DNA of 64,000 nt from Spirochaetota bacterium (GCA_965208615.1 CBDBPB010000003.1:1-64000); one strand, 5' to 3'. Positions 876 to 33,183 are shown, counted from the first letter of the stretch. Numbers and translations: made by a program. The notes: a model not told the origin generated them from the letters alone.

Positions 876-1931
876 ATGGCACGAGCTGGTGCAACACAAA
901 TGTCGAACAGAGGAGGAAGCACTCCAGGTAAGAGACAGCTTAGTGGAAAACAAAAAGCCGCAATATTTTTAGTAATATTAGGTCCTGAAGTATCCGCTAG
1001 CGTATTTAAGTGTTTAAAAGAAGATGAGATAGAGCAGTTAACCTTTGAGATAGCTAGAATAGATAAAGTTGAACCAGCAGAAAAAGAAAAGGTTTTATCA
1101 GAGTTTCAAGAACTTATGATGGCTCAGGAGTTTATTACATCTGGTGGTATAGACTATGCCCGAGAAGTTTTAGAAAAAGCATTGGGTTCTCAAAAGGCCT
1201 CGGATGTTATTAGTAGGCTGACATCATCTATTCAATCAAGACCTTTTGATTTTGTTAGAAGGACTGATCCAGCTCACCTTTTAAACTTTATACAGTCAGA
1301 GCATCCACAGACAATAGCATTAGTTTTGGCTTATTTAGAGCCGCAAAAGTCATCCATGATATTAAGTGCACTGCCTCAAGAGATCCAGGCAGATGTTGCT
1401 AAGCGAATAGCCACTATGGATAGAACATCTCCTGATGTACTTAGGGAGGTAGAGCGTGTATTAGAGCGAAAGCTGTCCACTCTTGCGAGTGAGGACTACA
1501 CATCAGCAGGAGGTATAGACACTATTGTAGAGGTTCTTAATCTTGTGGATAGAGGGACTGAGCGAAATATAATAGAGGATTTAGAGGATGAGGATCCTGA
1601 GTTGGCCGAGGAAATTAAAAAGCGTATGTTTGTATTTGAGGATATTGTTCTTTTGGATGATAGATCTATACAAAAGGTATTAAGAGAAGTTGATGGTCAA
1701 GAGTTGGCACGAGCCTTAAAAGCGGTTGATAGTGAAGTTCAAGATAAAATATTTAGAAATATGAGTAAGAGGGCATCATCTTTGCTTAAAGAGGATATGG
1801 AGTTTATGGGTCCTATTCGTCTTAAGGATGTGGAAGAGGCACAACAAAAGATAGTTGGTATAATTAGGAAGTTGGAAGAACAAGGTGATATTGTTGTTGC
1901 AAGGCCAGGAGAAGATGAACTGGTAGTATAG
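876..1931 (+). CDS. fliG: Flagellar motor switch protein FliG
   Basis: LSGKQKAAIFL, GGIDYA, EHPQTIAL, MFVFEDI, MGPIRLKDVEEAQ motifs. Start moved to ATG 876, downstream of GAGGAG (861-866). Confidence 0.97.
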   Translation: MARAGATQMSNRGGSTPGKRQLSGKQKAAIFLVILGPEVSASVFKCLKEDEIEQLTFEIARIDKVEPAEKEKVLSEFQELMMAQEFITSGGIDYAREVLEKALGSQKASDVISRLTSSIQSRPFDFVRRTDPAHLLNFIQSEHPQTIALVLAYLEPQKSSMILSALPQEIQADVAKRIATMDRTSPDVLREVERVLERKLSTLASEDYTSAGGIDTIVEVLNLVDRGTERNIIEDLEDEDPELAEEIKKRMFVFEDIVLLDDRSIQKVLREVDGQELARALKAVDSEVQDKIFRNMSKRASSLLKEDMEFMGPIRLKDVEEAQQKIVGIIRKLEEQGDIVVARPGEDELVV

Positions 1932-2406
1932 ATTAGTTTATTATATGCTAATTTTGTTAGTGAAGGTTTTGGTAGTTTACTTTTTATAATTGTTGTTTAC
2001 TCATAGGGGATTAGGTATACTTTTTTGAAGTTTTACACATAACGTCAACATGTAATATTTAAATAATCCGCTCTACGCCTTTATGGAACTGCAAATTCGT
2101 TAACACTTAATAAGGGTCTATAATCCTTAGTCTCAGTAAGGGATTCTTAATAGCTCTCGTAATGATGACTACTTGCATAAAAAGTGATATTTTGTGTTAA
2201 TTACTAAGGCATTTAAACAGCACTTAAAGAGCATATAGGGATAACCTGCTTGACACAGGAAAATAACTTTTCCATGAATATCTTAACTTTCCTGTTCCAC
2301 AAAGAGATATAAAATACATCTGCCTTTACGTTATATGTCTTCATTTTGCCTTGTATCCCTCGTCATAACTTTGTCATAAAATGACAACTGAATTATTAAA
2401 TAATAT

Positions 2407-2961
2407 CCCTTTAACCTTAACAAAAAATAAATATACTTACTCGCCTGACTTAAAGTCTAAGCGTACAAGTTTATATGCATGTCTATTGTCAACAACCTAA
2501 ACTTGATGAAGTATCCGTTATACTAAACCATAAAAAAGAAAAACTATATTCCCCTTAGCCTTAACAAAAAATAAATATACTTATTGACCTGACTCAAGGT
2601 CTGAGCGTACAAGTTTATATGCATGTCTATTGTCAACAACCTAAACTTGATGAAGTATCCGTTATACTAAACCATAAAAAAGAAGAGCCGTCCTCCCCTT
2701 AATTTTAACAAAAAAATAAACTATATTTACTAACTTTACTCAAAGTCTAAGCGTACAAGTTTATATGCATGTCTATTTTCAACAACCTAAACTTGATGGA
2801 GTGCCTGTTATACTAAACCATAAAAAAGAAAAGCTATATTCCCCTTAGCCTTAACAAAAAATAAATATACTTACTCGCCTGACTCAAGGTCTGAGCGTAC
2901 AAGTTTATATGCATGTCTATTGTCAACAACCTAAACTTGATGAAGTATCCGTTATACTAAA
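2407..2961. repeat. Tandem array of 4 imperfect ~144 bp units; inverted homolog of the 3' end of the 3181-4740 gene
   Basis: GCGTACAAGTTTATATGCATGTCTATT recurs at 2461, 2605, 2751 and 2895 (periods 144, 146, 144). The reverse complement matches 4679-4795. Confidence 0.93.
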
Positions 2962-3051
2962 TTATTACATATTATGTATAGGTATGCCAATTGGGAATAT
3001 TAAAACCTCTTATTAAAATATAGCTATCCCCTTTGAAATAGGTTTAAGTAC

Positions 3052-3095
3052 TTTTTTTAGTTGTATTTTTCTTTGAGATTGATTACCTTATAGTA
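3052..3095 (+). promoter_or_regulatory. Putative promoter motif shared with the LRR lipoprotein gene
   Basis: TTGTATTTTT...GATTAC.TTATAGT; the same motif with the same spacing occurs at 6424-6467. Confidence 0.5.
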
Positions 3096-3180
3096 GATTT
3101 ATTTTTAAATGATATAGCTTTATATGCGTTGGCCTATTAGAGCTTAACGTTTTAAGCTAAAAAAAACAATAGGGGGAATT

Positions 3181-4740
3181 ATGAAAAAAGTATTATTTAT
3201 TTTAGCAATTTTAGTTTTATTAATAGAATGCAAACAAGTAAATGGATTCTTTGTAAAAGCTTTAAAAAAAAGGTGAAAAGCGTACTACTAAAAATGGGAA
3301 ATCCTGGAATACTGCCTTTAGTGATCTACAAAAGGCTATTAATAAAGCCTCAGAAAAGTTTAAGTCTAGTAAAAAACCTGTTAAGGTATATGTATCAAAA
3401 GGAACTTATAAACCTACTAGTCATCCAAATGGTGGTAGTGGTGATCGTAATAAGCATTTTGCCTTAAAGAATGGTGTAGAGGTTATTGGTGGTTATAAAG
3501 GTGAAAAGCTTGATGAGTCTAACGATCCTGAACAATATAAGACTATTCTAAGCGGTGATATCGGAATAGTGGGCGATGATAGTGATAATGTCTATCATGT
3601 TTTTTATCATCCGGGTGATAAAGAAGACAAAGCAAAGTTAAATAACTCAGCAAAGCTAGGCGGCTGTTACTATTACCAAAGGTAATGCTGATAGTGATAA
3701 TGATCCCCATAATACAGGAGGGGGCATGTATAATAATAATAGCTCTCCCTATTTAAATTATGTGGCTTTTAACTAGTAATACGGCAGAGGGCGGAGGGGG
3801 CATGGCTAATTGGGATAATAGCTCTCCAACGTTAACAACTGTGACTTTTACTACTAATACGGCTAGCTGGTTCGGAGGGGGCATGTATAATGAGAATAAT
3901 AGCTCTCCAACGTTAACAACTGTGACTTTTACTACTAATACGGCTAAATACGGAGGGGGCATGCTTAATAAGGAAAGCTCTCCCACTTTAACAAATGTGG
4001 AGTTTAATAGTAATAAGGCCAAACTCGGAGGGGGGCATGTATAATAAGGATAATAGCAAGCCAAAGTTAACAAATGTGACTTTTACTACTAATACGGCTA
4101 ACTGGATCGGAGGGGGCATGGTTAATTGGAAAAGCTCTCCCACTTTAACAAATGTGACTTTTACTAGTAATAGGGCAAAGGGCGGAGGGGGCATGTATAA
4201 TGAGAATAATAGCTCTCCCACTTTAAAAGATGTGACTTTTGATAGCAATGAGGCTAAGCAATACGGAGGGGGCATGTATAATAGTGATAATAGCAAGCCC
4301 ACTTTAACAAATGTGACTTTTACTAGTAATACGGCCGAGGGCGGAGGGGGGCATGTATAATTATAATAGCTCTCCCACTTTAAAAGATGTGACTTTTACT
4401 ACTAATACGGCTACTAAAGGAGGGGGCATGCATAATTGGGAAAGCTCACCCACTTTAAAAGATGTGACTTTTAACTAGTAATACGGCTAATAGGTACGGA
4501 GGGGGCATGGTTAATTGGGGTAATAGCAAGCCCACTTTAGATAATACGGTGATTTTTAATAAAAACATTGCTGGTAGCATTGAAGATAAAAAAGAAGGAA
4601 AAGGCGGGGCTATTTATAATTATTCCTCAAGCATAACAGGCACTCCAAAGTATGGAACGGGTACTAATGAAAATAAAAAGGTTGTCTTACAGGGTAATAC
4701 ATATAAACTTGTAAAGTCAAACCTTGAGTCAGGCCAGTAA
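3181..4740 (+). pseudogene. Right-handed parallel beta-helix (Pmp-like GGGMxN / FxxN repeat) surface lipoprotein, broken by several frameshifts (possibly assembly errors)
   Basis: RBS AGGGGG then MKKVLFILAILVLLIEC; GKSWNTAFSDLQKAI...VYVSKGTYKP motif in a shifted frame; about 11 repeats of GGGMYNxxSSPTLTNVTFTxNTA; ORF fragments 3760-4044, 3995-4360, 4507-4740. Confidence 0.8.
3715..4545 (+). repeat. Intragenic ~75-81 bp tandem repeats encoding beta-helix coils
   Basis: GGAGGGGGCATG...AGCTCTCC...TGTGACTTTTACTA unit recurs about 11 times. Confidence 0.9.
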
Positions 4741-4768
4741 GTATATTTATTTAGTCCGTTAAAATTAA

Positions 4769-4792
4769 GGGGAGCATAGCTCCTCTTTTTTT
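4769..4792 (+). terminator. Rho-independent terminator
   Basis: GGGGAGC-ATA-GCTCCTC followed by a T7 tract, between convergent genes. Confidence 0.8.
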
Positions 4793-4807
4793 ATTAGATT
4801 AGTAATT

Positions 4808-6248
4808 CTACTCTATAGAACTCTTTAGCCTATCCATCCTATCCTTATCAAGCTCTATATATATGGTTTTAATAGCTGAAACCTGTACCTCACCAGGGGG
4901 AGAGCCTTTCCTTTTTGATATGTTCTTACGTTTGGTATATATTACCTCTCCCTTCTGACTGAGCTTTGCTTTACTATAATTAAGGGCTAGAGTTGCCGCA
5001 TCAATAAGTGTTTGCTGTTCTATATCCTCATCCTTGCCCAATGGTACTACTACATGAGAACCAGAATAGTCCCCTAATATGTAACCACATATCCCCTACC
5101 TTTGGCTATAGAAAAGCTTAGCTTATCATTATCCTTATTCTTTTTGCCTACCAATATACGTTTGCCTGTAGAAGATATAAATACCCTATACGGATAAGAG
5201 ATTGTTGGCTTTAGCTTTTTAGTACCTTGTTTTAAGGTAGCCAGTTTTTTAATAGGAGGTTCATCTTTGTGGTTTAGAAGAAAGTCATCTAACTGTGTCA
5301 AACTATTAACACCTTCAAAAGTGCTATATATCCTTTGTATTTTTATCATAATCCTCTTTAGCAGACTTAAACCATAGTTTCAATATGTGTTAGCCCTGAC
5401 TTAAGTTTTTTAGCCTTTTTAAAATAGTGATTTAAATTATCCGACGGCTCTTTCTTAGGATCAAGGTCTATCTTAATATAAGACCCGTCATTATTAAAGT
5501 AGTTCATAAGAGATATATTATTAAGTCCCCTTTTTAGCTGATACAGATTAGCTTTTAATAACTCCCCCTGTTGTTGATAGTCTATCCACTTACTACACTG
5601 TGTTTTTTGCTTATTAAGATTATCCAATAGGCTAAGGCTCTTCTTGATAGCCTTTTTTAAATAGCTATCTATCCTGCAAAAGTTATCCTTATACCCTTTA
5701 GACCCTATAACTTTATTATAATGCTCTTCTATGCTTTGATTATAGAGCTTATCCTTTTCTTCTGGTATACATGTTTTGGGTACATAGTCTGATTTGTTAG
5801 GCGGTTTATATATACTAGCAATAATCCCTAACTCTTTATTCAGGTTATACATTATAACTTTGTTTATGTCGAGTAGGAGTATATCTTTTTGCTTTCCTAT
5901 CATCTCTATGATAAGGTAATAGGTTATTTCATTCTTTATAACAGTAAATTCTATTATCCTGTCATTATTTAGCTGGCGTATATCCCTTATGACAGCATTT
6001 TCTATATGTTTTCTAAGATAGAGCAGTATATTAGAGTTGTTAGCTTGGGATCTCAGATTTTTATTGCTTATATGTATTCTCATTTCACTATGTTTTAGTG
6101 ATATTAATAAATTAGTATTTTGTTTATGATACAGCTTTAGTACAAATGTATGGTGGTCTATTTCTATTATTTTCCTTATTTGCGATGGTATAATTAGTTT
6201 TTTAAGTTCATTTATGACTTTGTTTATTTCTATGTTATTAAGGGACAT
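4808..6248 (-). CDS. rqcH: NFACT/RqcH (FbpA-like) ribosome quality-control protein, split by 2 frameshifts
   Basis: N-terminal LRKHIENAVI..IRQLNNDRIIEF; GELLKANLY; IDLDP....NLNHYFKKAKK; ILVGKKNKDNDKL; C-terminal DAATLALNYSK...VIYT..KNISKRKGSPPGEV, across three ORFs. Confidence 0.88.
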
Positions 6249-6423
6249 AATTCATGCTCATACTAATATTTGTTTAAAATCTATAATAAATAACTTTAGC
6301 AGTCAACTTATTTACCCTAGTCGTTAATAAATGTTAGGTATAGTCAATTCGTTATACGAACTATGGTATTTAGACCTTATAACTAATTCAATAGGTTGCT
6401 CTATGTAAAATAGATTAATAGTT

Positions 6424-6467
6424 TTTTTTTAATTGTATTTTTGTTAAGAATAGATTACTTTATAATA
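6424..6467 (+). promoter_or_regulatory. Putative promoter motif shared with the beta-helix gene
   Basis: TTGTATTTTT...GATTACTTTATAAT, with a perfect TATAAT at 6461-6466. Confidence 0.55.
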
Positions 6468-6501
6468 AGTCTTAATTAATTATAGTCATTTTGGAGGGAA
6501 T

Positions 6502-8607
6502 ATGAAAAAGGTATTTTTTATTTTAGCAATCTCTATTTTAGGTTTATCCATAGGCTGTGGAGAGAAGAAGAATGATTTATCCTGTAAACTTGCAGGTAAT
6601 TGTCCAGATGAAACAAAAAAGTCACCAGAAGACAGACTAAATGAGGCAACTCAAAGACAAACAAAAGCACAACTAGAGGTGAATACATTAACAACAAATC
6701 TATCAACAGCACAAACAGAACTAACAGAAGCACAAAATCTACCTCACAGTGCAACAAAGCAACAAACAATAGATAATGCACAAAAAGAAGTAGATAGATT
6801 AACAAAAGAGTTAGAGCTAGCAAAAGCAGAGCTAACAAAAGCTAAAAAAGCAGTAGAAGAGGCACAAAAAGAAGTAGATAAAACAGCAAAAAAGGTATGT
6901 AGAATAGTCAAAGATACAGCTGATCGTTTTAGAGTGATAACATGCCATTCTGATGCTACTACAGAAGCTACTTGTAATACTAAAAAGACCCAAGCTACAG
7001 CGGCTGGGGATAAAAATGTACAATCAGAGCTTGTTAATGAGGGGCAATGTTCATCTTTTAATGGTTATACCGCAAAACAACGAAAAGATGCAGTTGATTG
7101 GGTAAATAAAAAGCTTGGAACAAGTTATACGGTTAATGATATCCCTAATATAACTAAGCTTATTTTATCAGCCAAACTAACTAGTGATAATGATCATACC
7201 AACTTTGCTAAGCATATTGGTGTTTTTACAGGATTGACTAGTCTTGATTTAGATAATAATCAGCTAAGCTCATTACCAACCTCGATTGGCAACTTAACAA
7301 ACTTGGAGGTGCTTGATTTAGATAATAATCAGCTAAGCTCATTACCAACCTCGATTGGCAACTTAACAAACTTGGAGGTGCTTGATTTAGATGATAATCA
7401 GCTAAGCTCATTGCCAAGTAGTATTAGCAAATTAACAAACTTGAGGTGGGTTATTTTAGAGGATAACAAGCTAAGCTCATTACCAACCTGGATTGGCAAA
7501 TTAACAAACTTGAGGCAGCTTTATTTAAATAATAATAATCTAAGCTCATTACCAACTGAGATTGGCAACTTAACAAACTTGACAAGACTTGGTTTATCTT
7601 CTACTAATCTAAGCTCATTACCAACCTCGATTGGCAACTTAACAAACTTGAAGTGGCTTGCTTTACGTAATAATAATCTAAGCTCATTACCAACCTGGAT
7701 TAGCAACTTAACAAACTTGGAAGAGCTTTATTTAAGCAGTAATAATTTAAGTTCATTACCAACTGAGATTAACAAGTTAAAAAAGTTGTTTAATCTTGAT
7801 TTAAGGTCTAATCCTCTTGCTACTAATGAGGTAGAGAAAAAGAGGATAAAAACTCTTTTACCTCATTGTAAGGCACCTAGTTGTAGTATCACATTTTTTA
7901 ATGGTTATGCAACACAACAACGAAAAGATGCAGTTGATTGGGTAAATAAAAAGCTTGGAACAAGTTATACGGTTAATGATATCCCTAATATAACTAAGCT
8001 TATTTTATCAGCCAAACTAACTAGTGATGATGATCGTACTAAGCTTGCTAAGCATATTGGTGTTTTTACAGGACTAACATATCTTAGGTTGGATAGTAAT
8101 GGGCTGACCTCACTACCAGATAGTATTGGTAATTTAAAGGAATTGATGCTCCTTGAGTTACACCGTAATCAGCTAACCTCATTACCAGATAGTATTGGTA
8201 GTTTAAAAAAATTAAAAAAACTTATTTTGAGTGCCAATAACTTAAGCTCATTACCAAATAGTATTGGTAATTTATCAAATAGTTTGGAGGGACTTGCTTT
8301 AAGAAATAATAAGCTAACAGAGCCAGGTAGTATTAGTATTATTGGTAAGTTAACAAAGTTAACTGAACTTAATTTTCAAAATAATGGGTTAAAAGCCTTA
8401 CCAGATAGTATTGGTACGTTAACAAAGTTAATATGGCTTAATTTATCTGTTAATGAGTTAACCTCGTTACCAAGTAGTATTGTTAATTTGAAGGACAATT
8501 TAAAGACTATTCTTTTATCAGAGAACAATATTTCTGAAGATGAAAAAGGTAATATAAAAACACTTTTACCTAAAACTTCTATTGATTATACCAATACGAA
8601 TCCATAA
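6502..8607 (+). CDS. Leucine-rich-repeat lipoprotein (coiled coil + two LRR blocks)
   Basis: Lipobox LSIGC; 23-aa LxxLxLxxNxLSSLPxxIGNL repeats; duplicated cap FNGY...KHIGVFTGL. Confidence 0.93.
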   Translation: MKKVFFILAISILGLSIGCGEKKNDLSCKLAGNCPDETKKSPEDRLNEATQRQTKAQLEVNTLTTNLSTAQTELTEAQNLPHSATKQQTIDNAQKEVDRLTKELELAKAELTKAKKAVEEAQKEVDKTAKKVCRIVKDTADRFRVITCHSDATTEATCNTKKTQATAAGDKNVQSELVNEGQCSSFNGYTAKQRKDAVDWVNKKLGTSYTVNDIPNITKLILSAKLTSDNDHTNFAKHIGVFTGLTSLDLDNNQLSSLPTSIGNLTNLEVLDLDNNQLSSLPTSIGNLTNLEVLDLDDNQLSSLPSSISKLTNLRWVILEDNKLSSLPTWIGKLTNLRQLYLNNNNLSSLPTEIGNLTNLTRLGLSSTNLSSLPTSIGNLTNLKWLALRNNNLSSLPTWISNLTNLEELYLSSNNLSSLPTEINKLKKLFNLDLRSNPLATNEVEKKRIKTLLPHCKAPSCSITFFNGYATQQRKDAVDWVNKKLGTSYTVNDIPNITKLILSAKLTSDDDRTKLAKHIGVFTGLTYLRLDSNGLTSLPDSIGNLKELMLLELHRNQLTSLPDSIGSLKKLKKLILSANNLSSLPNSIGNLSNSLEGLALRNNKLTEPGSISIIGKLTKLTELNFQNNGLKALPDSIGTLTKLIWLNLSVNELTSLPSSIVNLKDNLKTILLSENNISEDEKGNIKTLLPKTSIDYTNTNP
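7057..8073 (+). repeat. Near-identical intragenic duplication (7057-7233 and 7897-8073) flanking 69-bp LRR tandem repeats
   Basis: CGAAAAGATGCAGTTGATTGGGTAAATAAAAAGC... is identical at 7081 and 7921 (offset 840). Confidence 0.92.
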
Positions 8608-9838: not shown

Positions 9839-10261
9839 TTATGACACAAGTTTTAATATTGTGTTTATTGCCTTCTCATCCGCTTGCTGTTCCTCTTCTT
9901 TATAGTGTAAGAAAAGCTTTACAATTTGCTCAGCCTTTTTCTTGGGGTCAATCTTAGCGTTTAGCTTGATACACGCCTTCTCAGAAAGATATATAATCTC
10001 AGTTAATAAGTTAATATCGCCTTTTTTTATTTCTTCTGATTCAGCCTCTTCTAAAAACATATTGCCTTTTCCGGATAATAGCCAAGTTGGATTAATTTTA
10101 TAAACTTCCATTAATCGAGCAATTTGTCCAGAATTAAGTTCTTGTATCCCGTTTTCTAACCGGCTTAAGCTATTTCGCTTAACATATAAAGTGTTAGACA
10201 TTTCAGCTTGGGTTATTTTAAGGACATCTTTTCTTATTTTTCTTAATCTTTGTCCAATCAA
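9839..10261 (-). CDS. XRE-family HTH phage repressor
   Basis: IGQRLRKIRK..ITQAEM...LSRLENG...INPTWLLSGKGNMF. Confidence 0.9.
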   Translation of the reverse strand: MIGQRLRKIRKDVLKITQAEMSNTLYVKRNSLSRLENGIQELNSGQIARLMEVYKINPTWLLSGKGNMFLEEAESEEIKKGDINLLTEIIYLSEKACIKLNAKIDPKKKAEQIVKLFLHYKEEEQQADEKAINTILKLVS

Positions 10262-10286
10262 TTTGCATTCTCGTTAAAAATACCTG

Positions 10287-10345
10287 TTTTATGGATTTTT
10301 TTTGACGAATCACTTGACTTTTGACCATAAAATGGCTATTTTATA
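10287..10345. promoter_or_regulatory. Divergent repressor/Cro switch region
   Basis: Lies between two divergent HTH genes; three TTGAC repeats; inverted pair TTTTATGG / CCATAAAA and palindromic CCATAAAATGG. Confidence 0.45.
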
Positions 10346-10430
10346 TTTGTAACGTCTCATTATGTAATTTAACTCAAGATGAATTAACTTACAACTTTTA
10401 TTAATAAAAAAATTATAAAAGGAGTTATTA

Positions 10431-10634
10431 ATGTCTGTAAACAATATTCAAGACTCTAAAGCAAAAAAAAGAAAAAAATACTGTAAAATAGTACTAGTAC
10501 AAAAAGGAATAACTCAAGAACAAGCCGCTGAACTTTTGGGAATTACTCGTAGATCCGTTAACTCTTATGTAAACGGTAAATTAAACTCTAAAAAACTTGA
10601 CTCCTGGTTCGGCTGGGAGAATGGCAATGTTTAA
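10431..10634 (+). CDS. Small Cro/Ner-like HTH regulator
   Basis: GITQEQAAELLGITRRSVNSYVNG; RBS AAGGAG; divergent from the repressor. Confidence 0.85.
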   Translation: MSVNNIQDSKAKKRKKYCKIVLVQKGITQEQAAELLGITRRSVNSYVNGKLNSKKLDSWFGWENGNV

Positions 10635-10640
10635 ATATTA

Positions 10641-10829
10641 ATGAAGTATTTTGAGCCTATACCATCATCAGAACTGCCTAAGCTAACAAAACATGAACGA
10701 GATTATATAATTGGAGTGATAAATAAATACCATCACATGGATGATGATGAAAAAAATAAGCTTTATAAAACTTTAAAAGCTGTTGTCCTAAAGGATAAAT
10801 GGCTAAGACAAAACAGGGAGAAAAAATGA
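10641..10829 (+). CDS. Hypothetical phage early protein
   Basis: 62-aa ORF tightly packed in the operon; its stop overlaps the next start (ATGA). Confidence 0.6.
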   Translation: MKYFEPIPSSELPKLTKHERDYIIGVINKYHHMDDDEKNKLYKTLKAVVLKDKWLRQNREKK

Positions 10830-11833
10830 AAACATTATGGAGATATTTACTAATAACAATTTTAATAGCTGTAATAATTTTAATATTTCTCATTCAAAAA
10901 GAACTATTTATCCAAGAAATGAACTCCGTATCCTTAGGCATATCCACTTTAGCGGCCGTCCTAATATTAGAAATAATAAGCCATGTGTTTTTGTTCAAGT
11001 CAAACAAAAGATTAGCAAAAACCGTGTTTGGTACAATATCAGCCGTGCTAATTGCCTTTGCCAGCTTTGCTAACTTCGCTGTTATGACAAGCCTATCCCT
11101 TAACAAAAACAAAGAAATCCAAACCATCACCATAAACAATAACGCTAAATATCAAAACTCATACAAAAATAAAGAGTTAATATCAAAAAGAATGGGCAGT
11201 ATAGAACAACAAATAAAAGCTAAATATCAAACTATAAATAAAATACAAAGTACTGATTCAAGATGGATGATCCATAGACTGAATAACGATATTAAGAACT
11301 TAAATCAAACTTGGACAAAGGAACAGGCTAAGCTATCCAATCTAAAACCTATAGCACTAAAAACCAAAAAAGAAACCATATTGGCCTCCTTAGACCAGCG
11401 AACTGGTATTCCAGCAACTGTTGTAAGCATGTTTAATAAAGCTTTTATATCCATTTTACTAAGTATAATTCCATTATCGTTTTGTTATTTGCTTGTCTCT
11501 CTTCCTGTAACAAAAATAACCCCCTTCGATAAAAATAAAGCCAATAACCTCCATAATGTAAACAGGAAAGGGGGACAAGCAGTTTTTTCTAGCGAGCCTA
11601 AACAAACATCCAAACCGCTAGAACAAAGCAGTAATCAAACAGTTGACTATATATCAGACTGCCTAAGCAAGCTAAACATAAATAGAAAAGAGCTGTCTGA
11701 TAAGTTAAAAATTACTACTGGGTATCTAAAAAAAATAGAGAGGTCAAATGACGTCCCACTTTGGGTACAAAGCAAACTGACAAGTCTAATCAACCATCAA
11801 GGAGGAAGTTATGAACGAATTAGCTACAACTGA
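10826..11833 (+). CDS. Membrane protein (3 TM + coiled coil + TM) with C-terminal HTH
   Basis: Hydrophobic segments; C-terminal LNINRKELSDKLKITTGYLKKIE HTH-like motif; start MKTLW follows GGGAG. Confidence 0.7.
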   Translation: MKTLWRYLLITILIAVIILIFLIQKELFIQEMNSVSLGISTLAAVLILEIISHVFLFKSNKRLAKTVFGTISAVLIAFASFANFAVMTSLSLNKNKEIQTITINNNAKYQNSYKNKELISKRMGSIEQQIKAKYQTINKIQSTDSRWMIHRLNNDIKNLNQTWTKEQAKLSNLKPIALKTKKETILASLDQRTGIPATVVSMFNKAFISILLSIIPLSFCYLLVSLPVTKITPFDKNKANNLHNVNRKGGQAVFSSEPKQTSKPLEQSSNQTVDYISDCLSKLNINRKELSDKLKITTGYLKKIERSNDVPLWVQSKLTSLINHQGGSYERISYN

Positions 11834-12557
11834 TATTATAACTGATGAGTTAACTGACGGACTTATTTTTGATCCTGACAGAACAGCGGGAATCGTAAAA
11901 GAACTTCATGCAAACACCCTTCTGAACATAATTGAACTAGGAAGACATTTAATTCTAGCTAAAGAACGACTTGATCATGGAGAATTTGGTTTATGGATAA
12001 AAGAGTCTTGCGGCTTTTCCTATAGCTCTGCACGTAGTTATATGCAAATAGCAAAAAGATACTACCCTTATAAAAATGAGATAATTGATATGAAGGCTTT
12101 TGCTTTCAAAGCCGTTGCCAAACTTCCTGATGATCTTTTTGATGAAGCAATGAAAACTGGAAAACTGGAAGGAAAAGATGTAAACGAACTCTCAAAAAGA
12201 GATGTGCTAAATATGGCTGAAAAAGCTAAGGCAGGCGAAGAGATTGAAAAACGAAAAAGAATAGAAAAAGAAAAACAAATTGAACTCGGCAAAGTCCAGC
12301 TTACTGAAAAAGATAAAGAAATCGAAAAGCTTGAAGATCAAATAGAAGACCTGAAAAATCCTAACAAGCTTTGTATAGAGAATCTTAAAAAAGCCCAAGA
12401 CCTCATAAACGAAGCTGTTTTCAGCATACAAAAAGCAAGCATAATAAATATAGAACAAAGACAGGCTACTGATTTGCTGTCAAGTCTTGTAACAACTATA
12501 AAAAGCGTCCAGACTGCATGGGGAGTCAGATGGGACGACAGGCTTATTAGGAGATAA
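11811..12557 (+). CDS. DUF3102-domain protein
   Basis: IIELGRHLILAKERLDHGEFGLWI...SARSYMQIA; RBS GGAGG; typically found just upstream of Mu-like transposases. Confidence 0.85.
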   Translation: MNELATTDIITDELTDGLIFDPDRTAGIVKELHANTLLNIIELGRHLILAKERLDHGEFGLWIKESCGFSYSSARSYMQIAKRYYPYKNEIIDMKAFAFKAVAKLPDDLFDEAMKTGKLEGKDVNELSKRDVLNMAEKAKAGEEIEKRKRIEKEKQIELGKVQLTEKDKEIEKLEDQIEDLKNPNKLCIENLKKAQDLINEAVFSIQKASIINIEQRQATDLLSSLVTTIKSVQTAWGVRWDDRLIRR

Positions 12558-12558
12558 C

Positions 12559-14157
12559 ATGCCACGGTTGACTAATTCTGAATGGGAAGACATAATAGAC
12601 ATACTAACCACGCAAGGCCTAAGCCTTATACCAGAACTTGCTAAAAAATATGGCGTTACCCCTCAATCCGTAAACAGACAACTTAGAAAATATGGATACA
12701 GACGTAGGAATAAGCGATCAGATAAGGGAGAAAAAATACTGCCAGAAAACGTATACCACAAGCTTGTCCTTTTAGTCAATACCTATAAGCGCCCAGCAGA
12801 AGAGGCAATCAAAGACCTTATAATAGACGGCACCATAAAAGGAGAAATTGAAAATGGACAGCTGATAAAGTCTCCAATTCATCCATCCACACTAAGAAGA
12901 TGGCTAAGGGATGATGAGCTTGGCAGAAAGTCTAAACTTAAAAAAGCAAGCCTCAGACTAACTACAAGTTACCCTTTAGAAGTTCTACAGTGGGATTCCA
13001 CAAGGGCTACTCAGTGGTATGTCAGCCATGAAAAAAATAACGACTCTGTTGTTAAGTATATTAGTCCAATGTCTGAGAATAAGAATAGGTCTAATAAAAA
13101 GACTAAACTTGTGTTCATGGCATTCCAGGATATGTTCAGTAGGAAGGTCTGGTTTAAGGTGGATACTCATGAGTCCACCCAAACTTGGTTACAGCAGTTT
13201 TATGAGGTAACTAGCAAAACAGGACTGCCAAAGTATATTTATACTGATAATGCCTCTATGTTCCACAGAAGCGGAGTTGTCAATAAAACCTTAAAAGAGT
13301 TGAATGTTGAGCTTCTAACCCATATACCTGGCAACCCCCAAGCAAAGGGCATGATTGAAAGGTCTATACAGTTTTTGGAGAAAAGATCGAGCATAACCCG
13401 CATTGAGAAAATCACTACCCTAAAACAGTATAACCAAATGGTAAATGCAATAGCTAATGAATATAACAGCAGGACTCACTCAGTAACAGATATGGCTCCA
13501 AATACATTATTTTACAGCCATCTACAGCATCTAACAGTTGTGATGCCTCCTGATTACAAAAGCTTTATGAGCCTTTGTCCTAAATGGGACTCAAGGCTTT
13601 TGATGCCCAACTTTACCATTAAGTGGAATGGTAAAACATATCAAGCCAAAACTTATAGGAATATTTTGTCAAACAGCATAGGCAAAAAAGTAAAAGTAGA
13701 AGAGGATATTAGGGATAGAGACAAGATTAACATTATTGCGGAAGGAAAAGAAATTAAGGCTCTTAATATTGATATTTATGGAGAGGATATAATACCTTTT
13801 GGAGCTTTTAAACAAATGCCGGAAAGCAAAAAGGATAAGCTTAAGAAAGAACTTGAAAGCTATAAAAACGTTACCACAGGTAGTTATACAACCAGAATCG
13901 AGATGGTATCAGGGCTGGAAAAAGTAAGCAAAAAGCAATACGAAAAACCAAATGTAGTAAACTTTAACATTAAAAGAAATATCAATCAGACTGCCCATGA
14001 CTTTGAGTCAGCGTGTATATACTTAGCAAGCAATGATATAAAAGTAACCACTGCTGTTGAGCTGACTCTTGAGAACCTCTTTGGTGATAGAAATAAAATA
14101 TATGAAAGTGAACTTAACTCTCTAATTAGAAAAGTTAAAGAGGCTGACTCAGCCTAA
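12559..14157 (+). CDS. MuA-like DDE transposase
   Basis: N-terminal HTH; catalytic LQWDST, IYTDNAS and PGNPQAKGMIERS; YNSRTHS; beta-rich C-terminal domain. Confidence 0.9.
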   Translation: MPRLTNSEWEDIIDILTTQGLSLIPELAKKYGVTPQSVNRQLRKYGYRRRNKRSDKGEKILPENVYHKLVLLVNTYKRPAEEAIKDLIIDGTIKGEIENGQLIKSPIHPSTLRRWLRDDELGRKSKLKKASLRLTTSYPLEVLQWDSTRATQWYVSHEKNNDSVVKYISPMSENKNRSNKKTKLVFMAFQDMFSRKVWFKVDTHESTQTWLQQFYEVTSKTGLPKYIYTDNASMFHRSGVVNKTLKELNVELLTHIPGNPQAKGMIERSIQFLEKRSSITRIEKITTLKQYNQMVNAIANEYNSRTHSVTDMAPNTLFYSHLQHLTVVMPPDYKSFMSLCPKWDSRLLMPNFTIKWNGKTYQAKTYRNILSNSIGKKVKVEEDIRDRDKINIIAEGKEIKALNIDIYGEDIIPFGAFKQMPESKKDKLKKELESYKNVTTGSYTTRIEMVSGLEKVSKKQYEKPNVVNFNIKRNINQTAHDFESACIYLASNDIKVTTAVELTLENLFGDRNKIYESELNSLIRKVKEADSA

Positions 14158-14175
14158 CAAATAAGGAGCGCTACT

Positions 14176-15024
14176 ATGATTACCAAAATGAAAGAAAGAG
14201 CTGTTCCAAAACTAAAAAAAGGAACTGAAGATAGCATTAACAAACTTATTGATAACATTAGTATTATCAACAAAATAGAAAATGAAAAGGATATATTTTT
14301 ATCTGAAGGCTTTAGACTTGCATTCGCCTTTATATTCAACGCAATTAAGAATAAGAAGTTCATTGCTATAACCGGTGAGACAGGCTCTGGCAAGACATAC
14401 CTCGTTAGATATTTGGCTGACTTTTATAAAAATGACAGTTCAACAATAATATGCAATATAGAAAATCATGAGTTTATCAAAGTAGGACTAAGACAAATAT
14501 ACGAAGCTCTTTTATTTGACATTCAGCCTGGCACAAAGACAACAAGATCAAATGAGGCCTTTATAAGACAGGTAAAGCATATACTAACTTCTTTGGTTAA
14601 AGAGAATAAGAAGGCCGTCCTTATTGTGGATGAGGCTCACAGAATGAACAAGGATAATCTGTTTTCCTTAAAAAGCATTTGGGAGAGTACTTATGGCTTT
14701 AGCAGGCTTATTAGTATAGTGCTGATAGGACAGAACAAGCTATCCACATTGTTGAATGAGCCTAATAACAAAGAAATCAACAATAGAATAGAATGTCTAT
14801 CAATAGCCAGCATTGCAACCCCTGATGAGTGCAGAGAGTATATAAAACATATTGCAAAGACTAATAAACTTAATATCAGTTGTATTGACAATTCCGCCTT
14901 TGAAGAGATAGCCAAACGCCAATCATCCTTTTTGGAGATAAACAAACTTTTAAAAGAAGGTTTAATTATAGCCAAAAATGCTGGGTCTAATATTTTGACT
15001 AATAAACATTTTAAACACATCTAA
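14176..15024 (+). CDS. MuB/ExeA-like AAA+ transposition ATPase
   Basis: Walker A GETGSGKT, Walker B LIVDEAH, IVLIGQ; directly after the transposase. Confidence 0.9.
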   Translation: MITKMKERAVPKLKKGTEDSINKLIDNISIINKIENEKDIFLSEGFRLAFAFIFNAIKNKKFIAITGETGSGKTYLVRYLADFYKNDSSTIICNIENHEFIKVGLRQIYEALLFDIQPGTKTTRSNEAFIRQVKHILTSLVKENKKAVLIVDEAHRMNKDNLFSLKSIWESTYGFSRLISIVLIGQNKLSTLLNEPNNKEINNRIECLSIASIATPDECREYIKHIAKTNKLNISCIDNSAFEEIAKRQSSFLEINKLLKEGLIIAKNAGSNILTNKHFKHI

Positions 15025-15040
15025 AAACAAGGAGAGTAAA

Positions 15041-15424
15041 ATGATTTTTAACATGGAAAAAGACAAAATTAAAGAAGTTAAAAAGCTTATCAAGTGCTAC
15101 AAAGCTCTTAAGGCCATGGAAAATAGCTATAACAGCCTAAGCAAAAAGGTTATTAGCTTTATGGTTAGAGGAGAGAGCATAAATACCAACAAAGGCAGGG
15201 TAAGCCTTGCTGAGACTAAATACACACTCATTGATCCAATAACGTTAAAAGACGCTATTGAAAAGGGGACTATAACAAAAGAGAACGCCTCCAGCTGGAT
15301 AAGTGAGAGATATACCCTAACCAAAAAAGGTAAGGAAGCTCTAAAAGGTAATGTAAGGGCTCTGGTTGACATAACTAACACATCCACAAGCGAAAGGCTA
15401 TATGTAAAAGCAAATGACAAATAG
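15041..15424 (+). CDS. Hypothetical phage early protein
   Basis: RBS AGGAG; in operon between the ATPase and GemA-like genes. Confidence 0.7.
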   Translation: MIFNMEKDKIKEVKKLIKCYKALKAMENSYNSLSKKVISFMVRGESINTNKGRVSLAETKYTLIDPITLKDAIEKGTITKENASSWISERYTLTKKGKEALKGNVRALVDITNTSTSERLYVKANDK

Positions 15425-15821
15425 TATTAGCAATAGACAAATAGCTAAAATATGGGCTTGCACAAATGAAGTTAGGCTACCCAAAGAGGCTTTATACGAG
15501 ATAATCTATGGTCTTTGTGGAAAGCAGTCAATAAGACAATTGACAAGGCAGGAGGCTTACAAGATTATAGAGACATTAATATCAAAATATAACGCCTCAA
15601 AGGGTAGATATAGAAATACTAAGCCACCCCCAAACTCAAAAGGGAATATAATTTCCCTTATGAGTCCAGGTCAAAAAAGGAAAATATTAAAACTATGCTA
15701 TCAACTAAAATGGGATGAAGAAGAACTTAATAACTTCTCTAATAAAATTGTTAAAAAGCCCTATGATAAATTATCTAAGGAACAAGCATCCATATTGATT
15801 GAGGCTCTAAAGGCTGTTTAA
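15414..15821 (+). CDS. GemA-like (DUF1018) Mu-type regulatory protein
   Basis: RQIAKIW...GKQSIRQLTRQEAYKIIETL...QKRKILKL..W...QASILIEALKA pattern. Confidence 0.8.
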   Translation: MTNSISNRQIAKIWACTNEVRLPKEALYEIIYGLCGKQSIRQLTRQEAYKIIETLISKYNASKGRYRNTKPPPNSKGNIISLMSPGQKRKILKLCYQLKWDEEELNNFSNKIVKKPYDKLSKEQASILIEALKAV

Positions 15822-16072
15822 AATCAACCAACTAATAACTATGTTATACGTCTTATAAGCATTAACAATAGACTTTTGTCTCTTCACTATAATCAGCATT
15901 AATACCCCCTATCATCTTTTATAGCTTATAAAAAGCTGTAAACCTTTAATTATCTCGTTTACTTTTGATAAAATAAAAATTATTTTTGTTTTTCAGCAAT
16001 TGACCGATAAGTCCATATAGTAAATTGTTTGAATATTATCCTTCATAATGTTAAATATATATAGGGGTACAA

Positions 16073-29093: not shown

Positions 29094-30812
29094 TTAAGCA
29101 TAATATTTTATACCACTATTAGCCTCTATCCTAACTTTTCCTTTCTTTTTTAAATAGTCTCGAACTACATCATATACAGGCTTAGCTCCTTGTCTTAGGT
29201 TTGAGCCTGCTCTATACAAATTACCACCCCAAGCAGAAATCTTATACAACTTTTTAGGATTAAACGCCTTGCCATCTATCTTAATACTTTCTATAGGTAT
29301 TCTTTTCAAAACAGGAGCGTTAATTTTAATAGACATCTCAACACCAAGTAAACGACTAAAGTCTCCCCCTTGTTGTTTATAGGGGTCAGAATTAAATAGG
29401 TTATCTAAGATATCTTCAAATATCATCCACAGTTGTTCTCCCTGCATATCAAAGGTCCAAACATTAGGATAAGTAATAGATGTATGATCATAAACATCTT
29501 TCATAGTTATCTCATCCCCTGGTAATAAGGTTGTTCCCCAACGGTAACCAGGTGAAAAGACAATCTCTGGATCATAAGTATCTTTTATTGCCTCAACAAT
29601 AAGCTGATCAAATGTTCCCATGAAGGTATCTCTTCTATATAAAAGACTTTCTGTAACAGCTAGTTTTTCATATAGCTTTACTTCATATGGTTTATGCCAT
29701 TTATCTATAAGCTCCTGCATCTTTGGATCAGGTGGAATAAAATTAGAAAGAACAGGTAGTAGCTTATGTCTAAAGTTAGCAATTTTCTTATTTTGCACAT
29801 CAAGGTCAATTCTCCCTAAGAACTTTCCATGAGAACCAGCCTGAACTAAAATGGTATTACCAATCTTAAGAGCTTTTGGAAGAGGATCATGGGTATGACC
29901 TGTTATAAGTAAATCAATTCCTTTAACCTCTTTTGCTATTTTCTTATCCACTTCTAAGCCATTATGGCTCAAAACTATTACAATATCCACCTTATCTTCG
30001 TTTTTAAGCTTATCAGTAAGCCTTTGGATATTAGAAGGCCTAATTCCAAAAGACCATCCTTCAGAAATATGGTTATTTTCCTCAAGAGTTCGTGGATGTG
30101 CAAGGGGAACATAAGGAAAAGACTGACCAATTATTCCAACCTTAACATCTTTTGTTTGTTTTATAACATACTCTTTAAAAACTTTGTCGCCTTCTTTTTC
30201 AAAGTCAGTATAAACAACATTCTGGCATACAAAATCAGCTTTAAGCTGTTTAATTCTTTTAAAGAGAATATCTTGTCCAAAAGTGAACTCCCAATGAGGA
30301 GACATAACATCAATACCCAATAAGTTTTGAGCTTCTACAAGAGCTTCACCTTCAGTTAGCAGTCCAATACCTGTTCCAACCCAAGTATCTCCTGAATCCA
30401 GGAATAGACATCTATCTTTACCTCTATCAGACATAATCTGCTTTGACAAAGTAGACAAATGAGCATATCCTCCCATTTTACCGTACTTCTTAGCTAAATT
30501 AGGAAAGTCAAGATAAGACTGAAAGTATGCTTCTTTAGTACCAGAATTAATGTTCCAATACTTAAGACGGTCTTTACCTACAATATGTCCTGGAGTATTG
30601 GTCATATTAGCAGGTGCAAGATTTAGAGAAGGTTCTCTATAATATATTGGTCTAAGATGAGCATGACTATCTGCTATAAATAGTATAGTTAGATTGCCCA
30701 AGGGATCAAACTCATAGAACTTTTCTGCGTCACTACACTGTTCAAGAGATAGACCTGTAACTAAAGCTAATTCTAAAGCTAAAGTTGCTTTTAAAAACTC
30801 TCTTCTATCCAT
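29094..30812 (-). CDS. soxB: Thiosulfohydrolase SoxB
   Basis: Tat motif MDRREFLK; DSHAHLRPIYYREPSLN; DSGDTW; HWEFT; GHTHD; FSPGYRWG; QQGGD. Confidence 0.96.
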   Translation of the reverse strand: MDRREFLKATLALELALVTGLSLEQCSDAEKFYEFDPLGNLTILFIADSHAHLRPIYYREPSLNLAPANMTNTPGHIVGKDRLKYWNINSGTKEAYFQSYLDFPNLAKKYGKMGGYAHLSTLSKQIMSDRGKDRCLFLDSGDTWVGTGIGLLTEGEALVEAQNLLGIDVMSPHWEFTFGQDILFKRIKQLKADFVCQNVVYTDFEKEGDKVFKEYVIKQTKDVKVGIIGQSFPYVPLAHPRTLEENNHISEGWSFGIRPSNIQRLTDKLKNEDKVDIVIVLSHNGLEVDKKIAKEVKGIDLLITGHTHDPLPKALKIGNTILVQAGSHGKFLGRIDLDVQNKKIANFRHKLLPVLSNFIPPDPKMQELIDKWHKPYEVKLYEKLAVTESLLYRRDTFMGTFDQLIVEAIKDTYDPEIVFSPGYRWGTTLLPGDEITMKDVYDHTSITYPNVWTFDMQGEQLWMIFEDILDNLFNSDPYKQQGGDFSRLLGVEMSIKINAPVLKRIPIESIKIDGKAFNPKKLYKISAWGGNLYRAGSNLRQGAKPVYDVVRDYLKKKGKVRIEANSGIKYYA

Positions 30813-30848
30813 AAAATCTTCCTCCTATACTCTTAGCATACTAGTTTT

Positions 30849-31622
30849 TTATCTTACCCATCCTGGAACATCTATCTTTGCACCTTGAGCTTTATGAGTA
30901 ATATATAACTCAAGAGCTGTTAGTGGAATAGAACCAGTTTTTAATTTTTTCATTCTAGCATTTTTCATACATTGCCTAAACCTTTGCTCTATTAAATAAG
31001 CATTACCTTTTCTCATTCTGTATGCAGGCCAATGAGAAGCACCACTTCCAATAGCAGCTAGTTTTTGCATTCTAAGAGTTTTACCAGGTAGAATATCATG
31101 GCAGACTTTGCAAGATAAGTTTCTTTGTCCTCTTCGTTGGCTATAAACTAATTTACCTAGTTCATACCATTCTTTTGCTTTTCCATCAATCTTTACATTA
31201 ACAGGCATCCCATTGGATAGTGATTTAATATAAAGAGTCATAGAAGTCATTTCATAAGAACCAAGCTTTATGGTTTCTTTTGGTGCAAAAGATTTTATAC
31301 ATACGTTAATTTGCTTTTGAAGACTAACCATAGTTTTGGCAGACTTAGTGATCTTAGGATAAGTTGCAGCAACACCTTTTAAATCACTTTCTGGCTTTGC
31401 ATGGCAAGTAAGACAAGATTTTCCTTCAGAGCCTCTTTTCTTACCAAGAAACTTTTTTCCTTCATCAATCATTATATCAGCAGGGTTTATCCCGCTACTA
31501 TACAATGATAGATCATCTTTTGATATACTCTCAGTTTTTTGTGCAGGTAGAGTAATAGCTATAAAGGCCCCTATTACAACTACAACTGTAAAAATAGAGT
31601 ATTTAAATAGTTTTTTTCTCAT
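30849..31622 (-). CDS. soxA: Diheme cytochrome SoxA
   Basis: CLTCH and CKVCH; RRGQRNLSC; HWPAYR; RFRQCM; LELY. Confidence 0.95.
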   Translation of the reverse strand: MRKKLFKYSIFTVVVVIGAFIAITLPAQKTESISKDDLSLYSSGINPADIMIDEGKKFLGKKRGSEGKSCLTCHAKPESDLKGVAATYPKITKSAKTMVSLQKQINVCIKSFAPKETIKLGSYEMTSMTLYIKSLSNGMPVNVKIDGKAKEWYELGKLVYSQRRGQRNLSCKVCHDILPGKTLRMQKLAAIGSGASHWPAYRMRKGNAYLIEQRFRQCMKNARMKKLKTGSIPLTALELYITHKAQGAKIDVPGWVR

Positions 31623-31624
31623 AG

Positions 31625-32098
31625 CTAATCTCCTGCCTTAACATCTACTGATTTCTCAAAAATATTGTCTTTATTATCCTTCCAAACAACTTTTAAAGGT
31701 GCAGATTTTATAACCTTTAGCTTAAAAGAAAAATAAGGATCTTTACTTATAGATGGATGTGTATCAAGTGAAGCTATATTTGCATCTCCATAATATACAC
31801 TTATATTTTTTATATAATGTACGGGTTTAGCTTTTTTGCCAATACCAGTATGCTGAGGATGTGTTATAACTGTTTTAACTTCTATAACATCTCCTTTTTT
31901 ATAATTTCTTGGTAACCGTATAAGAGCCTTACCAAATTTATTATTTTTCTTTTTTTCAGCAGAGGTTTTAGGTTTTTCTATTTTAGAAGAAGTTGAAGGT
32001 TTTGCTTCTTCTTTTTTTGTCTCTGGTTTTTGACAATTGTTAATGGAAACTAGAAAGACCATTACCACTAAAGCACCAAACACTCTTATTGTCATCAT
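31625..32098 (-). CDS. soxZ: Sulfur carrier SoxZ with N-terminal lipoprotein-like extension
   Basis: EVKTVITHPQHTG, HYI, SISKDPYFSF, WKDNK; located between soxY and soxA. Confidence 0.92.
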   Translation of the reverse strand: MMTIRVFGALVVMVFLVSINNCQKPETKKEEAKPSTSSKIEKPKTSAEKKKNNKFGKALIRLPRNYKKGDVIEVKTVITHPQHTGIGKKAKPVHYIKNISVYYGDANIASLDTHPSISKDPYFSFKLKVIKSAPLKVVWKDNKDNIFEKSVDVKAGD

Positions 32099-32194
32099 TG
32101 TTCTCCTTAATTATTAATTAATTTAATTATTTTATTAGACTCCAAATAGCTTTTGGACTCACTCACACAATACTACTAGATTTTTTATTATATA

Positions 32195-32626
32195 TTAACC
32201 GCATCCACCAATAGTAACCTTTATTGTTTTTTTAGCAGTATATACTTTACCATCATTCATTACAGCATAAACTCTAACTTCAGATGTTTTTCCCATTCTA
32301 ATCCTAGTTGAAAAACCAACAGCTCCCATATCAGGAGTTAGTTTGCTTAAGAATACCTTTGGATTAGGATTACCAGGCACTAAAACAGATAAAGATTCAA
32401 CATAATTATCTTTAGTTATAGGAAGGTCAACACTTATAGAAATAGGAATAACAGCTCCATTTTCAGCAATAACTGGAGCTTTAATATTCACTTTTTTAGA
32501 GCTTATTAACTGTTTTCCTTTTGTTACATCTTTAATGATTTTTTTTAGCTTAGCACTATCCTTTCCATAGCCTATAACTCCAAATATTACTAAACAACTA
32601 ATTAACATAATTTTTACTTTTCTCAT
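32195..32626 (-). CDS. soxY: Sulfur carrier SoxY
   Basis: APVIAENGAVIP, STRIRMGKTS, C-terminal swinging arm VKVTIGGCG-type motif. Confidence 0.95.
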   Translation of the reverse strand: MRKVKIMLISCLVIFGVIGYGKDSAKLKKIIKDVTKGKQLISSKKVNIKAPVIAENGAVIPISISVDLPITKDNYVESLSVLVPGNPNPKVFLSKLTPDMGAVGFSTRIRMGKTSEVRVYAVMNDGKVYTAKKTIKVTIGGCG

Positions 32627-32664
32627 TATTTGATCTCCTTGATTTATTTTTGTTAATATAGTAA

Positions 32665-33183
32665 CTACTTTAAAGTATTTAAATAAGCTACTATATCCAC
32701 AATATCTTGTTCAGACAAAACTTTTGTCGGTAATGCCGGTGGCATAACAGTTGACTTAAGTACATACCTTCTATCAGCAATAACTTGGAATAACCAATCA
32801 TCATTTTTATAATTTTTATCACGGCCCAAGTTAGCTCGGTATTTTACTAAAGAAAAACCTATATCACCACAACCTTTTGCATCTTCTGTACAATGACAAG
32901 CTGCACAGTTTCCAGTTTTTGTATTAGAAAATATTTTTTCTCCTTTTTTAGGATCACCTTTCAATCCTTTGGGATATGAATATTTTACTGGATTAGGGTT
33001 TATGTCAGAAAATATTTTTTTAGCATCAAACTTGCCATCTGTTTTATAGTCAGCAAGTGATTTGCCTTTAACGTTAGTATCTTTAGCAGTCGATTTCTTT
33101 TTTTCACCTTGACATCCTGACAAAAACATCATGGCGAAAACAATAAATATACTAAAGGTATACGTCATAATTTGTTTATACAT
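32665..33183 (-). CDS. soxX: Cytochrome c SoxX (lipoprotein)
   Basis: GDPKKGEKIF...GNCAACH...TVMP...LSEQDIVDIVAYLNTLK; lipobox LSGC. Confidence 0.93.
   Translation of the reverse strand: MYKQIMTYTFSIFIVFAMMFLSGCQGEKKKSTAKDTNVKGKSLADYKTDGKFDAKKIFSDINPNPVKYSYPKGLKGDPKKGEKIFSNTKTGNCAACHCTEDAKGCGDIGFSLVKYRANLGRDKNYKNDDWLFQVIADRRYVLKSTVMPPALPTKVLSEQDIVDIVAYLNTLK

Follow-up and report, generated by a model that had tools for sequence, protein, structure and literature searches.

A tandem array of inverted gene tails upstream of a beta-helix lipoprotein gene is probably the expanded interior of a dispersed mini-Mu-like element

Results

The tandem array and the neighbouring beta-helix gene

The window, a stretch of 64,000 nucleotides from a Spirochaetota bacterium that we take to be spirochete-like from its flagellar genes, carried a tandem array between fliG, which ended at position 1931, and a beta-helix lipoprotein gene (Table 1; loci elsewhere in the assembly are cited by contig and position). 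TRF analysis revealed a period of 144 with 3.8 copies and 87% matches. Inverted arms paired every unit with 4679-4795 (113 nt at 73%, and three 56-nt arms at 84-89%), and the alignment of unit 4 with the gene tail had a local score of 146, compared with 85 for the best of 1000 shuffles. The original prediction of four inverted copies upstream of a surface gene was therefore correct, and its translations of all four units, each with a TAG before VV, were reproduced exactly. Positions 2797-2811 of the array were identical over 15 nt to positions 4633-4647 of the gene, so the unit corresponds to the last ~165 nt of the gene with a frame-breaking internal deletion, and the "30-bp linker" described as a separate part was itself derived from the gene. 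The array units differed from each other at 3-20 positions. Over the aligned core, identity averaged 91% between units and 68% (58-77%) between units and genes, with 82% over the best 95 nt of unit and gene, which points to an older relative as the source of the units and not, as had been proposed, to the gene's own C-terminus. A decayed terminator had been ascribed to every unit; copy 3 alone still scored as a terminator, and copy 1 had lost most of it. The same unit variants recurred at C2:114532-115374 and C2:151233-151522. The units ran head to tail without unique spacers, which is not a CRISPR-like layout.

The beta-helix gene was not open in this assembly, because its frame changed six times, always in the same direction. 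Its closest open paralog encoded 672 amino acids at C8:87569-89587. The frame breaks are likely sequencing errors (uncorrected indels). One X1 contig, in which single bases were missing at 3159 and at 3264, was equal to the C8 paralog and is therefore uninformative on whether the frameshifts are real. The NFACT, dnaA and recN genes of the same contig were also split by frameshifts (4808-6248, 35416-36709 and 47186-48890, respectively). Segment D, directly upstream of the beta-helix gene, was common to five other element copies, where it led into different lipoprotein genes. Promoter-like matches in the region were at chance level, with 11 found and 11.9 in shuffles. Downstream, the paralog at C4:586.5 kb retained an intact ~145-bp terminal module after the terminator. 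The 9-nt direct repeat formed by 1929-1937 and 4795-4803 is not taken for a target duplication, since this C4 paralog has the same letters after its terminator. A leucine-rich-repeat lipoprotein gene farther along (6408-6540 and 6502-8607) had its upstream region and signal-peptide start in common with the beta-helix gene, and related N-termini recurred behind other element copies. The window also contained a gene cluster at 29094-33183 which, from our reading of the translations, we take to be a Sox-type sulfur-oxidation cluster.

Table 1. Positions of the array, its flanking features and the prophage-related segment in the window
Feature	Position	Strand	Remark
Left arm of dispersed element, starting at inner end-like site (TGTTAG...)	1955-2032	+	
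Non-coding core of 305 bp, short imperfect inverted repeat at its bounds	2033-2337	+	
Conserved spacer from core to array	2338-2405	+	
Array with 3.8 tandem units; every unit is a closed-frame, inverted relic (with internal deletion) of the beta-helix gene 3' end and terminator	2406-2961	-	
Array units in gene-like register	2406-2526, 2527-2670, 2671-2815, 2816-2961	-	
Only remaining terminator-like hairpin of the array, in copy 3	2680-2700	-	In a 17-nt patch identical to the flank of the gene's terminator
Segment D, upstream of gene (putative promoter and ribosome-binding region)	2962-3180	+	
Beta-helix (Chlamydia PMP-repeat-like) surface lipoprotein gene	3181-4740	+	PF13229 and PF02415 matches
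Intrinsic terminator of beta-helix gene	4767-4795	+	
Probable stub of the element's ~145-bp terminal module	4799-4807	-	From 15-nt identity with the C4:586.5 kb paralog junction
Truncated copy of Mu-like prophage early region (transposase, ATPase, GemA)	10639-15823	+	98.5% identical to C7 prophage

A dispersed element carrying the array

A search of the genome (2.46 Mb in 9 contigs, 99.4% complete) with a 151-bp core probe gave 46 matches, which lay between unrelated housekeeping genes. There were 42 near-full copies of the 305-bp core, and the mean pairwise identity among the 39 extracted was 88.9%. The core had stops in all six frames and no codon periodicity. An Rfam scan of 1900-3200 returned one chance match only (E 2.2), and folding of 2030-2410 on both strands was no better than that of shuffles (z -0.22 and -0.10). 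Being short, non-coding and present in many intergenic copies, the element family had the traits of a MITE. In 40 relatives a single 32-nt match to the element was found (E 2.8e-4), and 400 genomes of the phylum gave none at E 1e-5. Exact element motifs had no match in metagenome and viral contigs, and no relative of the transposase was confirmed in viral contigs.

A genome search with the unit had been suggested, and it did reveal further copies. The unit profile gave 89 matches, of which 12 shorter ones were dropped, leaving 77 of at least 60 bp that comprised 13 gene tails and 64 units. These 64 tail-like units, distributed over 25 loci, occupied one fixed place inside the element and pointed against the core in all 24 loci with a full core. 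No beta-helix gene tail was present within 6.5 kb in 18 of the 25 unit loci, and about 17 of the 42 cores had no unit at all. Four element copies retained a longer gene relic, up to gene position 4521. Of the 13 beta-helix genes, 10 had the element upstream; these 10 lay within 5.5 kb of a full core at 8 loci, a zone making up 9.2% of the genome, and the loci were co-duplicated and not independent. Two gene-bearing element copies were closed by the terminal module with an outward ACA-type end. These arrangements suggest that the element may have carried beta-helix genes around the genome. Tandem pairs of beta-helix genes existed elsewhere in the genome. The right-terminal ~145-bp module (C4:110832-110975 and about 90 other matches) had inverted ends of its own and occurred in either orientation, and for 9 of its 92 matches no core lay within 6 kb; the module may be a micro-element in its own right.

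Phage-type ends and a resident prophage

Intact element copies started with TGTTA and ended with TAACA, and a second similar site was located ~24 bases inside each end. A complete-looking prophage with ends of the TGT...ACA type was found inside the core of one element copy (C7:424829-460177; 35,349 bp), flanked by a perfect 6-bp duplication. Its genes encoded transposase, ATPase, GemA, terminase, capsid, sheath, baseplate and tail proteins. A gene for a FliA-like sigma factor lay close to the left end, and the prophage also had three related anti-repressor-like genes. In the available part of a report on Leptospira, B3-type prophages are described as having TnpA, TnpB, GemA, head and tail genes, TG-CA ends, a 5/6-bp duplication and a length of about 35-39 kb (PMC8705779). 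The C7 prophage agreed with the B3/Mu type in all of these characters, that is, in TnpA, TnpB, GemA, head/tail genes, TG-CA ends, duplication and size.

The ends of the element resembled those of the prophage. Agreement with the prophage ends was 27-35 of 43 positions for thirteen left ends and 24-29 of 43 for ten right ends, where the ends were hand-picked and the background of genomic 43-mers starting with TGT, elements included, had a mean of 15.6 and a 99.9th percentile of 27. Terminal inverted repeats shared with an autonomous element, a further mark of a MITE, were thus present at the level of the family. The window copy had no outer ends, and its inner left site matched the prophage end at 20-21 of 43 positions. 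An exact target duplication was found in none of the 18 element copies tested. The flanking 6-mers agreed with one mismatch in 2 of the 18 copies and within two mismatches in 7, compared with 2.1 expected by permutation (p 0.0016); the threshold and ends were hand-chosen after looking, shared local base composition could inflate the result, and the mean-mismatch p was 0.017. Exact cross-matches between left and right flanks of different copies, which would indicate scrambled duplications, were not found.

Part of the prophage was also present in the window, where positions 9839-15823 held a repressor gene, a Ner-like gene and the 5.2-kb early-region piece, without prophage ends or structural genes. 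This piece is a candidate second, intact-looking source of transposase. Solo sites resembling the prophage ends, without a core nearby, were seen at C4:364420, C7:139129, C7:310009, C1:393779, C6:218485 and C9:41549, and are possibly remains of other insertions.

Array junctions and mosaic structure

Tandem arrays of the genome were collected with a period of at least 40 and an identity of at least 84% (n=51, 25 of them mostly outside reading frames). Of the 25 poorly coding arrays, 21 touched the element, and 18 were on the same side as the window array and started in a zone that makes up 0.5% of the genome. The arrays in these 18 element copies had periods of 74-318 bp and amplified different parts of the element. 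Left-side tandem arrays were seen too, in three element copies (C2:113903-114151, C2:149964-150783 and C4:382547-382924, with periods of 109, 175 and 96). Overlapping tandem repeats of 304-403 bp at C7:162651-165054, seemingly with a short repeated gene, lay a few kb from relatives of the prophage repressor and DUF3102 genes.

Analysis of the first right-end junctions (n=26) showed that 17 led into flanking DNA and 9 led back into the element. Five of the nine were clean, three belonged to one 74-bp family and one was truncated. In the five clean junctions, the terminal CA was followed by element sequence from five different inner sites, and microhomology was limited to 0-1 nt. Clean joins at CA are the product of strand transfer by DDE transposases, and if one copy inserted into another and recombination followed, an end-to-interior duplication of this type would remain. 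The five joins are an indirect sign that the element may have been moved in trans by the prophage transposase. The clean join at C1:42.7 kb could be explained by slippage as well. Mini-Mu DNA is normally immune to insertion, according to the available part of the source (PMC2837660), which argues against self-insertion, though the prophage itself had landed inside one copy. The window array contained no right end, so that a seed of the transposase type is not applicable here. Single-unit copies at C8 and C4 had 9 nt of direct homology on both sides of the unit, which offers a seed for slippage; the junction predicted from it was 3 nt longer than the observed one.

The window locus was a mosaic. 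The last unit of the window array was 100% identical to C2:115.2 kb, copy 3 was like C2:151.2 kb, segment D was 100% identical to C2:151.5 kb, and the first 270 nt of the gene were 100% identical to C8. This sharing with sister loci indicates that blocks move between copies in the same orientation.

Tail exchange and other explanations

To examine tail exchange, the 13 gene tails were aligned with a set of units, of which 15 were those most like the window array and 20 represented the remaining 49. All gene tails fell into one clade apart from the units, with a support of 98/99 (bootstrap not fully settled). A unit-type coding tail was found in none of the 13 genes of this one assembly, nor did any coding tail have a run of unit alleles at the 24 diagnostic sites. 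The longest exact match between unit and gene in the coding tail was 14 nt, nine codons from the end, and 17 nt was reached only at or after the stop; a crossover would therefore change 2-3 residues, not twenty. These results bear on the proposal of a shufflon-like inversion, in which recombination between unit and tail would flip the gene together with its promoter and exchange its final residues. The gene does lie between inverted homologies as proposed, their arms being those described above, so that a rare inversion of the RecA type is physically possible, and one family gene was reversed behind the core at C4:603.8 kb. This gene was rejected as an inversion product because segment D was not inverted there, and none of the six core-unit-D loci in the assembled contigs had an inverted segment D. 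No site-specific recombinase had been noted nearby, and in the genome as a whole the only PF00589 tyrosine recombinases were two on other contigs (C4 and C8), best matched by XerD and XerC; at 99.4% completeness, serine recombinases (PF00239) had no match. Because an inversion would carry the gene's upstream region along, it would offer no obvious on/off switch. Contigs of the X1-X3 sets, which drop rare variants, had four skip joints and one back-step in the gene repeats and no strand-change joint, a result that carries no weight against inversion. The R64 shufflon (Rci, sfx sites, PilV C-termini) also has alternative C-terminal-like segments near a surface protein gene, and shufflons have an adjacent invertase, as described in the available part of the preprint (bioRxiv 10.1101/2024.10.25.620183). 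Here, by contrast, there was no adjacent invertase and no short crossover site before open alternative tails, and the units were upstream of the gene and closed by stops. Shufflon-like tail swapping is therefore very improbable. Somewhat less so, though still quite unlikely, is the suggestion that the units are silent inverted cassettes that give short tracts to the C-terminus of the surface gene by gene conversion. Partial gene copies that form a contiguous array on the opposite strand, ahead of a surface lipoprotein gene in a spirochete-like bacterium, have the geometry of Borrelia vls as given in the available part of the source (PMC11499132), and gene-adjacent units were somewhat nearer to the gene tails (68%) than other units were (64%). 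A few post-stop patches were shared, two genes having a three-site patch of unit type and three units, including copy 3, a two-site patch of gene type; small non-coding exchange or retained ancestry is possible for these. However, the units matched the genes at only 58-77% and comprised just the last 20 codons and the terminator, whereas in the same account vls cassettes match at ~90% over the central variable region. No templated variants were present among the 13 paralogs, since no coding tail had a run of unit alleles. Moreover, most arrays had no gene: units without genes were found at 18 loci, and two loci had genes without full units.

Three further explanations were considered. The array could be an antisense RNA locus, in which a plus-strand transcript driven by the core would run through the array, pair with the 3' ends of the 13 beta-helix mRNAs and damp the whole family, with the number of units as a dial. 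The orientation of the units in all 24 full-core loci fits this, as does the unusual uniformity of the core, and a MITE with promoter activity is known in BrickBuilt (available part of PMC4596501). Predicted duplexes with the gene tail had energies of -86 to -111 kcal/mol, whereas shuffles gave -36 to -42, as is to be expected from the homology. Yet the longest perfect pairing was 17 nt, promoter-like matches did not exceed chance, neither an Rfam match nor a stable fold was obtained, and many cores had no unit to transcribe. Many arrays amplified other parts of the element, for example a 74-bp terminal piece without a gene relic, and the amplification is therefore not specific to the antisense unit; an antisense role is unlikely. 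Among the options of the original prediction, a scar left by a collapsed paralog array came closest, together with the inverted homology, but the origin that it placed at this locus is genome-wide. In its local form, a run of minus-strand paralogs would have collapsed at the site and left its ends behind, which agrees with the units being real gene-tail relics with terminators and with the tandem gene pairs elsewhere. The units, however, had 83-100% identity among themselves and with those of other contigs but only ~68% with the genes, they shared one internal deletion that marks them as copies of a single relic amplified after its decay, and they kept a fixed place within a dispersed element. 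The local reading is thus largely refuted and has a small probability. The slightest chance of all is given to inflation of the array by long-read mis-assembly. Breaks of the indel type in the beta-helix gene, dnaA, recN and the NFACT gene would be in line with it, but the substitutions between units recurred at other loci. In addition, X2 contigs, which are possibly from the source sample and so not independent of the assembly, bridged fliG and the element (1419-2155) and the spacer and copy 1 (2280-2444) without differences, and one bridged a unit-unit junction (2415-2583) with 4 differences, possibly from a sister locus.

Discussion

The array is probably the expanded inner part of a MITE-like element that is non-autonomous and took its ends from a resident prophage of the Mu/B3 type, a natural mini-Mu. 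Homology between unit and gene suggests that the 3' part of a beta-helix lipoprotein gene was taken up in reverse by an ancestral element, and that the captured tail decayed to the unit, with up to ~280 nt kept in some copies. The element would then have spread to the about 42 intergenic sites where copies are observed, presumably by means of the prophage transposase and, in some lineages, together with whole surface-protein genes; such joint spread would explain why a gene of intact orientation follows an inverted relic from its own family. As the junctions suggest, the segment to the right of the core would have been duplicated repeatedly, in some copies through a clean join of the terminal CA to the interior, as a transposase would make, and in others, including the one in the window, through slippage or recombination at short homologies. 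Unequal recombination and conversion in the same orientation may have expanded and reshuffled the units to give the observed mosaics. Judged from the sequence, the array is likely to feed no tails to the gene, and no putative function is assigned to it. A point against the mini-Mu reading is that the 305-bp core had no significant match in the prophage, nor does this reading account for the uniformity of the core. It is doubtful that the element is a domesticated mini-Mu, with which the host would spread and reshuffle its beta-helix genes, with the core transcribing the captured tail as a family-wide antisense RNA and the length of the array set by transposase self-insertion and recombination.

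The engineered mini-Mu and mini-D3112 elements are similar to the element in their TG...CA ends of the phage type, repeated end sites and lack of a transposase gene. As with the B3/Mu-type prophages, including those of Leptospira (available part of PMC8705779), a helper of about 35 kb with TnpA, TnpB, GemA and a 6-bp duplication resides in the same genome. In the papers examined, of which PMC2837660 was available in part, mini-Mu elements were known only as laboratory constructs, whereas the element here is natural, ~0.7 kb long and present in about 42 copies, with an interior unrelated to the prophage. Its exact target duplications were not kept, and its apparent self-insertions differ from the immunity of mini-Mu (PMC2837660, same part). 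BrickBuilt, a MITE of Porphyromonas gingivalis, is likewise intergenic, species-restricted and non-autonomous, with a leader, an internal tandem array, often degenerate ends and inconsistent target duplications, as far as the available part of the source describes it (PMC4596501). BrickBuilt has a single 23-nt unit and IS5-type ends (same part of PMC4596501), while the element here has ends of the phage type, and each of its copies amplified a different 74-318-bp piece of its own, one of which is a captured gene tail. The element resembles a mini-Mu in how it works and a minisatellite-bearing MITE, of which BrickBuilt is an example, in how it looks, but it does not belong to the BrickBuilt family. 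No natural MITE family on the ends of a transposable phage was found in the literature searched, which is not proof of absence, and MITE tandem arrays of this kind had no literature match by title or abstract start.

This analysis adds that the unit probably began as a captured gene tail, and it contributes a negative result for tail swapping, the joins between element end and interior, and a faint trace of eroded duplications. The array also serves as a correction, because an inverted array of tails upstream of a surface gene can mimic an antigenic-variation cassette and yet be a transposon relic. If the interpretation is true, a phage transposase would be a source of tandem repeats, through a natural family of ~42 copies that keeps seeding satellite-like arrays, in part by clean joins of element end to interior, and in this spirochete-like bacterium it may also have carried a family of surface-protein genes.
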